Sequence record: OP688485
Origin: Escherichia phage EP_H11
Direction: 5' to 3' (one strand)
Length of the DNA: 64,000 nt
The stretch's first letter is position 1; each line of letters starts with the position of its first letter. Below, piece after piece: positions 2,211 to 36,592 of this stretch. Below the pieces are notes generated by a model. It ran no database searches. It had not been told where the DNA came from and saw only the letters and a program-made list of their open reading frames with translations. The position numbers and the translations under genes were made by a program.

Positions 2211-2299
2211 ATTTTATTTTTCAAATAATGAAAAATAAAACGATTTATGAAGCCTCCTAAAGCCCGTTCTTTTGGGTGGCGGGGCGTTCCCGCTGCTTC
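2211..2299 (+). promoter_or_regulatory. class II intergenic element, copy 1 (candidate early promoter/leader)
   Basis: AT-rich module TTTTTCAAATAA..GAAAAATAAAACGATTTATGAA, then core TAAAGCCCGTTCTTTTGGGTGG, then GC hairpin GCGGG-GCGTT-CCCGC and GCTTC. Confidence 0.6.
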
Positions 2300-2313
2300 T
2301 TCTTCTTCTTCTT
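2296..2313 (+). repeat. (CTT)6 microsatellite in the leader downstream of class II copy 1
   Basis: Six perfect CTT units read directly from the sequence. Confidence 0.9.
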
Positions 2314-2328
2314 CTCTAAGGATTGGAT

Positions 2329-2475
2329 ATGTTAACTTTAAGAGATTTCATTAGCGATTACCAGAGAATGGTAATTAACGGTGACTCCAAGAAGCCGGAT
2401 GTGGTAGAGTCTCTGATCACCACATACTATGCTCATATTGCAGACCAATGTAGATCATACCTGTCGTCTAAGTAA
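2329..2475 (+). CDS. hypothetical small protein (48 aa, below ORF-track cutoff)
   Basis: ATG 9 nt after AAGGATTGG. MLTLRDFISDYQRMVINGDSKKPDVVESLITTYYAHIADQCRSYLSSK. First ORF after class II copy 1. Confidence 0.4.
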   Translation: MLTLRDFISDYQRMVINGDSKKPDVVESLITTYYAHIADQCRSYLSSK

Positions 2476-2480
2476 CGTAA

Positions 2481-2503
2481 TAGGCTGGGAGTTACCCAGC
2501 CTA
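2481..2503 (+). terminator. stem-loop, weak terminator or RNA-stabilising hairpin
   Basis: TAGGCTGGG-AGTTA-CCCAGCCTA followed by CTTTCT. Confidence 0.4.
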
Positions 2504-2525
2504 CTTTCTAATTTGGGATTATTAT

Positions 2526-2765
2526 ATGTCTAGAATCTTCACTATCCCAGGAACCAAGATTTTGGTCCTGACCTCGAATCGCAATATCGCTAAGATTCAG
2601 TACCATCCTTCCAAAGATCAGTACTGCGTAATTCTCGAAGGTAAAAACGGAGTTACGGAGCACTGGACTAACTCATTATTCTCTGCCCTAATGCATACTG
2701 CCGACGTCGATAACTTCGACCCGATTATGGTAGACACCTTCCTGAAAATGGTAGGTGAAGCATGA
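2526..2765 (+). CDS. hypothetical early protein (79 aa)
   Basis: ORF with conserved TIR TCTAATTTGGGATTATTATATG. Same pattern as the next ORF (I-x-Y-x-P-x4-Y-x-V, C-terminal D-x-F-L-x-M/L-x-G). Confidence 0.6.
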   Translation: MSRIFTIPGTKILVLTSNRNIAKIQYHPSKDQYCVILEGKNGVTEHWTNSLFSALMHTADVDNFDPIMVDTFLKMVGEA

Positions 2766-3025
2766 TTAAGATGGTGGAAGTAACTCAATTCAATACTGTG
2801 GTGGTTAAGTCTGTAAACTTTCTATCCAGCATAGTGTATTACCCGAATCTTGGAATCTACGAAGTGGTCAAGCATCCTATGGGTGAGGCTAAGGTGGTAA
2901 TGTCAACCGAATCTGGTCGCTTCGCCAGAGAAATGGCTAAGGAGATAGACTCCTTCTTTAATTCTGCGATGGATGACTTCCTTGAGCTAACAGGCTGGTA
3001 TAGTCTTCCAGAACCGCTCCTTTGA
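2762..3025 (+). CDS. hypothetical early protein (87 aa), apparent tandem paralog of 2526-2765
   Basis: ATGA start/stop overlap with upstream ORF. Shared motif pattern SIVYYPNLGIYEVV vs KIQYHPSKDQYCVI. Confidence 0.6.
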   Translation: MIKMVEVTQFNTVVVKSVNFLSSIVYYPNLGIYEVVKHPMGEAKVVMSTESGRFAREMAKEIDSFFNSAMDDFLELTGWYSLPEPLL

Positions 3026-3049
3026 GGCCTCCAAAGGCTGTTAAACTGT
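3014..3049 (+). promoter_or_regulatory. class I 36-nt element, copy 1
   Basis: CCGCTCCTTTGAGGCCTCCAAAGGCTGTTAAACTGT. Overlaps the last codons and TGA of the upstream ORF; 30 nt before ATG 3080. Confidence 0.65.
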
Positions 3050-3079
3050 GTGAGCTTATTTAACCTGACCGGAGAAATT

Positions 3080-34530: not shown

Positions 34531-34842
34531 ATGAAAAACATCGATATCGCTAAACTGTTCCTTATCTCTCGTTTGTATCGTCTGTCTAATTCTTCCTCTA
34601 TGATCCTGTGGTATATCTCCGGAACCGCTTCGGGAGCCACGATCAACGAGCTTACAGTCTTCGCTGATAGCGAAGCATCACTAGGTCAAATCCCTCGTAC
34701 GTCCATCTACTATGTGTGTAATAAGTTAGAGAAGGATGGCTGGTTGATCAAAACGACTACTGCTTCGGAAGAGGGTGGTCGTCCGTGCAATCTGTACTCT
34801 CTGAGCCATCGTGCTCGTTTCTTCCTCGACCTGAATAAGTAA
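34531..34842 (+). CDS. putative winged-helix DNA-binding protein
   Basis: SIYYVCNKLEKDGWLIKTTTASEEGGRPCNLYSLS resembles the recognition helix + wing of MarR/PadR-type wHTH. Confidence 0.45.
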   Translation: MKNIDIAKLFLISRLYRLSNSSSMILWYISGTASGATINELTVFADSEASLGQIPRTSIYYVCNKLEKDGWLIKTTTASEEGGRPCNLYSLSHRARFFLDLNK

Positions 34843-34851
34843 GGTGCTGCT

Positions 34852-35232
34852 ATGTCCATATATTTCCAGGCAGTAGTTGGTGGTCACGTAGTCGATGAAG
34901 ATAACGTCAAGATCGTAACGACGAGTCTTGTTGGGTTACGGGATACTATTAACAAGGATGACCTCCTCCCGATTCACTACAACACTATTGTAGACCAATT
35001 AATTCAGGTAGAAACCGAAGATGGTCTATGCGGGAGCTTAGCGGAGCGAGTTGCTCAACCTATAGATTTGCTGGGTCTGTCCTTAAGGACCTCGGCTCTT
35101 CTGGATGAGCAACACGAGAATCTGACTGTGGATCAAATTAAGTTCCTGGTTAAATTGTTGAAGATGCTGTCCGCCTTAGCTGCAATCAGTCATACCTATA
35201 CGCTAATAACAACAAATCTAATGTGGAGCTAA
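34852..35232 (+). CDS. hypothetical protein (126 aa)
   Basis: ORF, early region. Confidence 0.55.
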   Translation: MSIYFQAVVGGHVVDEDNVKIVTTSLVGLRDTINKDDLLPIHYNTIVDQLIQVETEDGLCGSLAERVAQPIDLLGLSLRTSALLDEQHENLTVDQIKFLVKLLKMLSALAAISHTYTLITTNLMWS

Positions 35233-35234
35233 CC

Positions 35235-35531
35235 ATGCCTTCTGTAATCATTAAATCTAAGCATCGTGCTCTGTTGCGTGCTGCTCAGTCCAAGAATCTG
35301 GAAGAGATAACTAACATCGATCTCCATCCGAATACTCGCTACCACGACTACTTTATCTCCACTACGTTTATCGTACTGGATAAAGATAAGGCGAAGGTAA
35401 TAAAGAGCGTAGATAACCTCTTCGTCGAAGGTGAGATCATTCCTCTCCAGGATCTGTTCTCTAAGCTATCGGATGTCGAGCAGTCTACTCCTGCTACGAA
35501 GCATCCTGTAGACGTCCATATTTCCTTCTGA
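35235..35531 (+). CDS. hypothetical protein (98 aa)
   Basis: ATG 35235 behind TCTAATGTGGAGCTAACC. Confidence 0.55.
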   Translation: MPSVIIKSKHRALLRAAQSKNLEEITNIDLHPNTRYHDYFISTTFIVLDKDKAKVIKSVDNLFVEGEIIPLQDLFSKLSDVEQSTPATKHPVDVHISF

Positions 35532-35538
35532 GGTAACT

Positions 35539-35745
35539 ATGGGATATAAGCTCTTTGAAACTAAGGAGCAGGAGGAGCACTTCCTGAAGATGATTCGGGA
35601 AGGCTCCGCCATGAATACTCCTCGCAGTCCTGACGATCCTGGGTATAGAAGCGGATGTAAGTCTATTACCCAGGAATTCAGTTCAACAGTCTACCGCTCT
35701 CAGCATCCTTATGTGAGCGGAGGTAACTTAGCTAAGGTCCGCTAA
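35539..35745 (+). CDS. hypothetical protein (68 aa)
   Basis: ORF behind GAGGTAACT. Confidence 0.5.
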   Translation: MGYKLFETKEQEEHFLKMIREGSAMNTPRSPDDPGYRSGCKSITQEFSSTVYRSQHPYVSGGNLAKVR

Positions 35746-35906
35746 TGGAATGGGTGAGAGCATTGATGGTCATGAGTAGGCTAAAGCCTATCTGTCCAGA
35801 TGACATAATCCGGACTCGTGATGGATTAGTTATGTATCGTCAGGGTCACTTATCTGACCAGGATAAATCTGAAATCGGAATCTATAGGTTCGCTGATGGC
35901 TTTTAA
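35745..35906 (+). CDS. hypothetical small protein (53 aa, below ORF-track cutoff)
   Basis: TAATG coupling to the upstream stop; fills an otherwise 150-nt gap. Rare-codon rich, so uncertain. Confidence 0.3.
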   Translation: MEWVRALMVMSRLKPICPDDIIRTRDGLVMYRQGHLSDQDKSEIGIYRFADGF

Positions 35907-36273
35907 ATTAATGGACAGAACTAAGATCCTACACACTGCTGTGGAGAATGGTGGTTATGAATGCCGTACAGATAATAATTCTGTGAACATGGCAAATATC
36001 TCTACCTGTCTGAAGCTGGTGAGCGAAGGATTACTATTTCACGGAACTACTGAACAGGATGCTTACGACAAGCAAGTTAAGTGGTTCCATCCGACTCTTA
36101 CTGGTATCTTAGTAGATACTCAGGAGAAACTGGCTTACCTCATTAATCGGGGTAAGCCTCTATCTAAGAGGAAGCCTGAGATCCTGAATGCTAAACGTAT
36201 TCTGGAGGATAAGCCTAACCTCGCATCTGTATTGAACGAAGATATCTTGAAATTAATTAGGGATTATAAATAA
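35896..36273 (+). CDS. hypothetical protein (125 aa)
   Basis: ORF; alternative start ATG 35911. Confidence 0.55.
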   Translation: MAFKLMDRTKILHTAVENGGYECRTDNNSVNMANISTCLKLVSEGLLFHGTTEQDAYDKQVKWFHPTLTGILVDTQEKLAYLINRGKPLSKRKPEILNAKRILEDKPNLASVLNEDILKLIRDYK

Positions 36274-36515
36274 TGGCTATTCTGGTATTTGCCAAAGATC
36301 AACGGCAGTATAACGATTACATTCGCTCCCAGCATCTTAACCGTTCTGATGCTGTCTACGCCAGCTGCGTTAATAAGCTGCGTGGTCTATTTCCTAAGCC
36401 TACTGAGATGCACTTGCTGCCTAACTGGCATCATAGCGGTCCGTCCCAGATGGCTATGGAAAAAGCTAAGACTCTCTTTCCACAAGCAGTAGAGAAGTCT
36501 ATCGATCAGTGGTAA
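36273..36515 (+). CDS. hypothetical protein (80 aa)
   Basis: TAATG coupling to the upstream ORF. Confidence 0.55.
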   Translation: MAILVFAKDQRQYNDYIRSQHLNRSDAVYASCVNKLRGLFPKPTEMHLLPNWHHSGPSQMAMEKAKTLFPQAVEKSIDQW

Positions 36516-36592
36516 AATTATTTTTCAAATAAACGAATTATGAACGGGTTTAAAGCCCGTTCTTTTGGGTGGGGCGGCTTCCGGCGGCTCCA
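36516..36592 (+). promoter_or_regulatory. class II intergenic element, copy 6
   Basis: AAATTATTTTTCAAATAAACGAATTATGAACGGGTTTAAAGCCCGTTCTTTTGGGTGGGGCGG. Here GAACGGG/CCCGTTC form a perfect 7-bp inverted repeat. Followed by the direct repeat GGCGGCT(T)CC x2. Confidence 0.6.

Follow-up and report, generated by a model that had tools for sequence, protein, structure and literature searches.

Escherichia phage EP_H11 (sequence record OP688485) carries, in the 64,000-nucleotide stretch of DNA that was analysed and is called the window here, six copies of a composite intergenic element that we term class II. On balance we lean towards reading each class II element as a phage-specific bipartite promoter joined to a structured leader, with transcription predicted to start in a run of G residues (the G-run). 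It is classified with the promoter plus stem-loop cassettes known from phages, as a variant with a non-sigma70 core. An earlier examination of the letters alone, the sequence-only reading, had proposed promoters or leaders for phage genes. That proposal is retained as a non-sigma70 promoter or leader, given a sequence skeleton found in three phage lineages, a register shared with a second repeated element of the phage (class I), and the position of the class II copies as the sole repeated signals in 13 kb after terminators. Its suggestion of a virion-delivered polymerase does not hold in the form of a separate phiKZ/AR9-style virion RNA polymerase (RNAP), which is not encoded.

The main comparison was with Escherichia phage vB_EcoM_IME392 (IME392; 116,460 bp), which matches the window at 94% DNA identity in opposite orientation. 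Further relatives were recovered by protein look-ups, and their identity was measured on the N-half of the RNAP beta' subunit: 98% for L133, ~75–79% for L129 and L131, 47–58% for L130 and L132, and 39% for L134. No promoter study of IME392 or its phage group was found by literature search.

A 17-position skeleton defines class II

All six copies placed by the sequence-only reading, at 2211, 24950, 25321, 28798, 33004 and 36516, were recovered, each on the + (coding) strand. Also as described there, terminators lie 5' of copies 1, 2 and 5, which sit 10–50 nt downstream of these canonical terminators, and stop codons abut copies 3, 4 and 6.

~2177–2200, terminator preceding copy 1
2205–2297, + strand, copy 1: AT-rich dyad 2205–2247; box CGATTTATG 2241–2249; core AAAGCCCGTTCTTTT 2259–2273; hairpin 2275–2297; ATG 2329
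24932–24949, terminator preceding copy 2
24948–25055, + strand, copy 2: dyad 24948–24993; box 24997–25005; core 25015–25029; 10-bp hairpin 25031–25055; ATG 25081
25321–25405, + strand, copy 3, the most diverged: box 25353–25361; core CACAGCCCGTTCACTT 25370–25385; hairpin 25388–25405; ATG 25453
28788–28878, + strand, copy 4: AT dyads 28788–28830; box 28821–28829; core 28839–28853; hairpin 28855–28878; ATG 28905
32908–32954, terminator preceding copy 5
33005–33097, + strand, copy 5: perfect 24-nt palindrome 33005–33028; box 33036–33044; core 33054–33068; hairpin 33069–33097; ATG 33126
36516–36596, + strand, copy 6: box 36534–36542; core 36552–36566; imperfect hairpin 36567–36596; ATG 36631

The 26-mer TAAAGCCCGTTCTTTTGGGTGGGGCG, the second part of the element in the sequence-only reading, matched the window five times with up to three mismatches, against 0 matches in 100 shuffles; the sixth, diverged copy (25373) was found with the shorter core AGCCCGTTCnnnTGGG. 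Alignment of 12 copies from three lineages showed two invariant sets 11 nt apart, first CGA, T and TG and then AGC, GTTC, T and G, and the class II skeleton comprises the 17 positions CGAnnTnTG-N11-AGCnnGTTCnnnTG. When scanned with two mismatches allowed, this skeleton returned true copies only: six in the window, six in IME392, five in L133, four in L130 and two in L132. All 23 copies in the three lineages carry the skeleton, lie on the coding strand and are intergenic, 55–80 nt 5' of a start codon. The six copies of IME392 are syntenic with those of the window, and the other 66 kb of that genome holds none. Acinetobacter phage Ab1-TPeters (first 50 kb), the RP13 region and L134 gave no skeleton match. 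Specific DNA-pattern scans of IMG/VR and metagenomes likewise gave no match to class II, a loose 14-base scan of IMG/VR gave chance matches only, and a beta'-based scan of IMG/VR gave none.

The class II copies are near-identical DNA of ~85 nt. From CGA to AGC the distance is exactly 20 nt in each copy, and successive invariant groups of the skeleton are about one or two turns of the helix apart (10-nt periodicity), which fits recognition of duplex DNA. The block upstream of the T-run is conserved without conserved RNA pairing, weak and non-conserved stems across the core being predicted in some copies. The AT-rich first part described in the sequence-only reading is present, with the correction that it holds a fixed-position box with CGA and is not merely an AT-rich module. 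Farther upstream, AT-rich dyads made of TGAAAAATAAAAC, in either orientation, occur in four of the six window copies. L130 and L132 keep the same geometry, with the core AAAGCGAGTTCTTTTGG and with other, weaker hairpins.

The motif CTAATTTGG after the hairpins was rejected as a part of the element, being a general ribosome-binding-site context. A recurrent translation-initiation context, (A/C)TAATTTGGAG, stands 5' of several start codons (2508, 26562, 28886, 33108, 33453 and 36613) and is not class II-specific. Directly 3' of the copy 1 hairpin lies a (CTT)6 microsatellite (2295–2316), which is missing in IME392, where another gene cassette follows.

Class II elements head the beta' operons

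The block from 24.9 to 38 kb contains both halves of a split beta' gene, genes for RNase H-like, Acb1-like and PolX-like proteins, and ~20 small open reading frames (ORFs), several of them acidic. Each beta' half is preceded by one class II copy, as had been observed earlier, the C-half lying downstream of copy 3 and the N-half downstream of copy 4, and Pfam confirms both identities. The copy 4 operon consists of a 251-amino-acid ORF, the beta' N-half, the RNase H-like gene and the Acb1-like gene, the last predicted to act against the cyclic oligonucleotide-based antiphage signalling system (CBASS). Copy 5 heads ~12 small ORFs. The first ORF behind copy 6 (ATG 36631) encodes a 35-amino-acid hydrophobic peptide and is followed by a 123-amino-acid ORF and the PolX-like gene.

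26582–28096, + strand, beta' C-half (Pfam), in the operon headed by copy 3
29676–31244, + strand, beta' N-half (Pfam), in the operon headed by copy 4
32054–32560, + strand, Acb1-like anti-CBASS protein (PF23474), copy 4 operon

Repeated signals in this block are limited to class II copies 2–6 and, hidden within the stem of a terminator, a class I box at 32906; neither a class I box nor a good sigma70 promoter was found in 22480–32906 or in 32906–38067. The genes of the block need transcription from somewhere and class II elements are otherwise the only repeated signals there, which argues for the promoter reading, in which class II would control the block.

The sequence-only reading could not place a sigma70 −35/−10 pair, and we also found none at a common position in the copies, no + strand pair there scoring at least 9/12. 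Window-wide, the + strand has no sigma70 match of at least 11/12. TATAAT-like hexamers after the hairpin lie at a variable distance, 39–53 nt from the core, and no known phage promoter consensus fits class II. Other sigma factors, tried by hand, were rejected: for sigma32 and sigmaE/ECF (extracytoplasmic function) the spacings are 3–5 nt too short, and no sigma28 or sigma54 motif is present.

In the promoter that we propose, the box AAATAA(A)CGAnnTnTG would lie at about −40 to −25 and the core AAAGCnnGTTCTTTT at about −15 to −1, both read as duplex DNA, while the optional AT-rich dyads farther upstream could bind a regulator or serve as an UP-like element. The predicted start lies in the G-run, right after TCTTTT, within about 6 nt of 2274, 25030, 25386, 28854, 33069 and 36567 in copies 1–6. 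The 5' end of the mRNA would then carry, at 0–3 nt, a GC-rich, G·U-containing stem-loop that may stabilise the mRNA and may also block or mark read-through RNA. A short leader with a Shine-Dalgarno (SD) sequence would come next, followed by the first gene.

T7-group promoters (T7 classes II and III) are contiguous conserved blocks of ~23 bp that end in a GGG start, and the phi10 leader has a 5' stem-loop. Class II resembles them, in shape only, in its long contiguous core (AT-rich stretch, specificity block, T/A-rich melt region) followed by GGG and in its conserved TAAAGCCCGTTCTTTTGGG. Both also have two promoter classes that are variants of one consensus and a stem-loop at the transcript start, here a proposed one. 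Unlike the T7 group, class II has an extra invariant box at about −33 to −25, its sequences are unrelated, and no single-subunit RNAP was detected.

Class II is probably a variant of the promoter-like class I family

Class I shares its two-box layout with class II. The window holds 16 exact copies of AAAGGCTGTTA, with CCGCTCTTT before each and nnnTG(T) after, and the layout CCGCTCTTT-N10-AAAGGCTGTTAnnnTG(T) contains an extended −10-like TGnTAnnnT. These sites span 3008–55422 (for example 3033, 13439, 18879, 38067 and 55406). IME392 contains 25 of them. Every copy lies on the non-structural strand, 15–45 nt 5' of a start codon, and the structural arm has none. The class I downstream box is kept in relatives with 47–50% identical beta', namely L130 and Acinetobacter phage Ab1-TPeters; a related box, AAAAGCTGTTTAAAGTGT, occurs in the Acinetobacter phage.

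A position weight matrix (PWM) of the class I downstream box scores highest, locally, at one and the same register (AAAGnnnGTT) in five of the six class II copies, and the AAAG/GTT frame is retained in L130, where the core reads AAAGCGAGTTCTTTT. Class II is thus best read, from these alignments, as a sequence variant of the class I promoter family that differs in the −10-like half.

In L134 neither class is present. Its single repeated box, AAGCCTTTTAAA, stands before many genes (copies at 4843, 7060, 10603, 11328 and 15827). In five of six copies a GC hairpin (−11.7 to −17.0 kcal/mol) comes 1–4 nt after the box, among them the copies that precede the beta' C-half operon and the ligase gene. 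This box with its immediate hairpin suggests that the order of box, G-rich hairpin and SD is an old design in this clade. Some of the L134 box copies also have an upstream CCGAACGTAA repeat.

Two class I boxes of the window stand next to terminator-like structures. At 32906–32954 promoter and terminator overlap, since the box supplies the 5' arm for a 17-bp terminator hairpin, AGGCTGTTAAC...GTTAACAGCCT followed by a T-run, which is kept, with loop changes, in IME392 and L133. In the second case (9564–9625), ~25 nt separate the box at 9564 from a terminator-like hairpin, GGGGTTAGG...CCTAACCCC with TTTT, that precedes the PIG-L gene and could be an attenuator or give a short RNA.

Conservation of the predicted leader hairpin favours an RNA structure

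The GC-rich hairpin that formed the third part of the element in the sequence-only reading is present and longer than had been described, since the supposedly invariant GTGGGGCG is its 5' arm. The partner of this arm, G(G)TGGGGCG, is CGCTTCAC(C), two G·U pairs contributing to the stem. Copy 6 had been taken for a direct repeat in place of a hairpin; it does fold, as GGGGCGGCT-TCC-GGCGGCTCC, the stem containing a single G·G mismatch, and its IME392 ortholog has two T->C changes that tighten the stem. With the RNA taken to begin at the G-run, the hairpin starts 1–3 nt past the T-run in all six window copies. Stems are 7–10 bp and loops 3–5 nt, and the energies in the window range from −13.5 to −18.9 kcal/mol, the latter for copy 2 (z −4.0). 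After shuffling, 0 of 200 sequences were as stable for three copies and 10–16 of 200 for the other three.

Paralogous hairpins differ in register, and a single-alignment covariation count was therefore set aside in favour of per-copy folding and counts of substitutions between orthologs. The sense-strand RNA fold beats that of the complement in five of six window copies (the exception being copy 3), in five of six copies of IME392 and in all four of L130. On the antisense DNA strand the stems are interrupted, because G·T becomes A·C. Where orthologous copies differ at paired positions, pairing is kept in nine of ten substitutions, all through G·U intermediates. Copy 5 and its IME392 ortholog are separated by indels, yet both fold, and the six paralogous hairpins differ in their stem tops. 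Together, these observations favour a transcribed hairpin and point to a leader RNA hairpin rather than a template-strand DNA hairpin. No U-tract follows the hairpin in any copy. Rfam gave no gathering-level match in the window, and near copies 2–3 only microRNA-like noise from the AT dyad.

The strand bias bears directly on the likeness to phage N4 promoters that the sequence-only reading had raised. N4 hairpins are template-strand structures with stems of 5–7 bp and loops of 3 nt, and a giant virion RNAP is required for their use. Class II also places a conserved sequence beside a short GC hairpin, but its stems are longer (7–10 bp), sense-strand biased and continuous on that strand only via G·U, and no such polymerase gene was found. 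The analogy is weak and we consider it unlikely. In an N4-like structured-DNA promoter the core would be an upstream recognition box, the hairpin, at about −25 to −1, would be extruded under supercoiling and recognised by the polymerase, and the start would fall near CTTCAC, just past the hairpin. The template strand, however, has A·C mismatches opposite the sense G·T pairs, which leaves interrupted stems, although partial hairpins are still possible on both DNA strands. Drift between G-C and G·T, tolerated in RNA, weakens both DNA arms. The hairpin does end 30–36 nt from the core start, at the place taken in class I by the −10-like hexamer, and the class I upstream-box PWM scores above the 99.9th percentile on the class II core; this likeness is not kept in L130, and the large ORFs include no N4/T7-like polymerase gene. 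A promoter of this design is very improbable for class II.

The RNA-like conservation of the hairpin would also suit an element that acts within long transcripts, either a nut/put-like site of processive antitermination, with CCGUUCUUUU as a boxA-like sequence and the hairpin as boxB-like, or an RNase III/E processing site by which cistrons are cut apart. Lambda has few nut sites; they depend on an N-like protein and on transcription from promoters farther upstream, and their boxA consensus is CGCTCTT(T)A. The order of elements in class II, a CGYTCTTT-type pyrimidine-rich box, a short spacer and a hairpin a few nucleotides later, resembles lambda nut. The class I upstream box contains the exact boxA core CGCTCTTT, but class II does not: its copies read CCGTTCTTTT or GAGTTCTTTT instead of the boxA consensus, and the core is mutated from GCUC to GUUC in all of them. 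Unlike nut, class II has a conserved upstream DNA skeleton, whose invariant positions reach 33 nt upstream of the T-run with the duplex-like periodicity and absence of conserved RNA pairing described above. Three copies come right after efficient-looking terminators, so that little RNA would arrive there from upstream. The lack of an Rfam match also speaks against such an element. No N-like protein was recognisable, no search having been aimed at N-like proteins. We regard this reading as quite improbable.

Class II copies coincide with mosaic junctions

Three homology breakpoints in all fall at element edges. The window is identical to IME392 through copy 1 to the end of the hairpin and is unrelated to it beyond; at copy 5, homology between the two starts exactly at the left edge of the element; and L133 departs from the window a few nucleotides after the copy 2 hairpin, where it has a different ORF. 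Because they supply ~85 nt of near-identical DNA, class II copies may act as recombination joints between gene cassettes. The cassettes termed PeSL (promoter-early stem-loop) in T4-type phages likewise coincide with mosaic junctions (PMC2839356).

PeSLs are intergenic composites of ~100 bp (Arbiol et al. 2010, PMC2839356; Comeau et al. 2014, PMC4122927). Class II shares with them the repeated intergenic composite, the upstream stop codon in AT-rich DNA, the G/C stem-loop with G-T pairs, and the SD and ATG; both are enriched before small ORFans and coincide with breakpoints of insertion or replacement between close relatives. In contrast, PeSLs have a consensus sigma70 −35/−10, which class II lacks, and their stem-loops are terminators at variable positions, whereas the class II hairpin is fixed just after a non-sigma70 core and has no U-tract.

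Class II could accordingly be a PeSL-type terminator or attenuator combined with a promoter, in which the hairpin stops or trims upstream RNA, the promoter restarts transcription, and the position of the hairpin relative to the start is incidental. The overall anatomy is that of T4-type PeSLs, which bound shuffled ORFans and are made up of an AT-rich segment with the upstream stop codon, a promoter, a polyG/polyC stem-loop that includes G-T pairs, an SD and an ATG (PMC2839356), and the mosaic junctions at the element edges agree with it. Copies 3, 4 and 6 have no other upstream terminator; for copies 1, 2 and 5, however, a second terminator would be redundant with the canonical ones 10–50 nt upstream. 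The missing U-tracts and the fixed distance of the hairpin from the core, where PeSL stem-loops take varied positions, further argue against a terminator. This reading is unlikely, though it deserves some weight.

Which polymerase reads the elements

The promoter reading calls for an enzyme. A phmmer search of all IME392 ORFs with Salmonella RpoC found the two beta' halves (E = 1e-53 and 1e-25), whereas Salmonella RpoB had no match in the whole IME392 genome, which has no recognisable beta. Across that genome the DxDGD motif occurs in one protein only, with the catalytic motif NMDVDGD. The split beta' is fairly bacterial-like, and its C-half is encoded 5' of its N-half. A single DxDGD protein and the lack of a recognisable beta argue that a separate phiKZ/AR9-type virion RNAP is not encoded. 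Phages phiKZ and AR9-PBS2 have two full beta/beta' sets, and their early promoters, with an AT-rich consensus and no hairpin, are read by a multisubunit virion RNAP. The present phage resembles them in its split beta' genes, non-canonical DNA and phage promoters without a sigma70 consensus, but differs in its single DxDGD protein, the absence of a recognisable beta, the unrelated promoter sequences and the presence of the hairpin.

Pfam and PHROGs searches (~35 ORFs) and PDB sequence searches found no beta subunit or specificity factor. Nor did Pfam and PHROGs reveal an N4- or T7-like single-subunit RNAP among the ORFs tested, where the only RNA_pol family was beta'; no ORF at all exceeds 1100 amino acids. 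Conserved ORFs of 483, 230 and 251 amino acids flank the beta' genes in all relatives. AlphaFold models of the first two were too poor (predicted local distance difference test, pLDDT, 58.6 and 50.3), and Foldseek gave no match.

Since the window has no sigma70 consensus promoter, the first enzyme on the injected DNA must recognise class I, class II or both. Class II may be the better candidate for being read first, because the beta' genes sit behind it, and we infer its early timing, as the sequence-only reading did. The reader could be host RNAP with an additional factor or a virion-carried copy of the single RNAP of the phage. A broader proposal is speculative and unlikely: classes I and II would be the promoter set of an undescribed system in a ~110–116-kb phage with T-hypermodified DNA, in which a split, bacterial-like beta' without beta joins host beta and alpha or is carried in the virion and reads T-rich promoters (GTTCTTTT) on modified DNA, an obligatory 5' hairpin marks or protects the transcripts, and class II can be read before new beta' is made.

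Several points weigh against the bipartite promoter with a structured leader. The placement of the start site in the G-run is a guess. The z-scores of the hairpins of copies 3, 5 and 6 are modest, and the L130 and L132 hairpins are weak, as low as −4.4 kcal/mol. The class I upstream-box PWM fits the class II core better (8.5–12 bits) than the downstream-box PWM does, which would shift the core to −40 and make the hairpin part of the promoter; we treat this likeness as weaker evidence because it is lost in L130, whose class I upstream box differs. For the ORFs of 483, 230 and 251 amino acids neither a family nor a PDB match nor a usable structure was obtained, and no polymerase or specificity factor could be assigned.

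Gene context and DNA modification

The + strand carries every gene from position 1 to ~59.4 kb, with the structural arm on the other strand. The genes on the + strand are for replication and nucleotide metabolism, together with a thymidine-hypermodification cluster that includes a 5-hydroxymethyldeoxyuridine (5-hmdU) DNA kinase, and many small ORFs. From this kinase gene, the phage DNA is predicted to be T-hypermodified. The IME392-/EP_H11-like group has relatives among phages whose DNA polymerases are of the YerA41/RP13 type and whose thymidine is hypermodified, and IME392 has been grouped with phages that have YerA41-like DNA polymerases and 5-hmdU-derived DNA (PMC12686479). Genes of the cluster are as follows.

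6420–7160, + strand, methyltransferase
9643–10254, + strand, PIG-L deacetylase
12422–13393, + strand, 5-hmdU kinase
14202–15275, + strand, ThyA-like gene

Within the cluster sits a full-length gene for a betaine/carnitine/choline transporter (BCCT; 8174–9556, Pfam E = 1.6e-91), an unusual cargo for a phage.

Significance

The analysis gives an exact promoter definition, the 17-position skeleton with a predicted leader hairpin, and presents two promoter classes as variants of one family. It also frames a puzzle: a phage with one beta' and no beta, and a window with no sigma70 promoters anywhere. The idea behind PeSLs, that regulatory cassettes serve as recombination joints, would extend beyond T4-like phages. 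If the proposed start sites are true, the elements would mark a regulon that holds polymerase and anti-defence genes, and they would offer a handle on the enzyme or factor that first reads hypermodified DNA.

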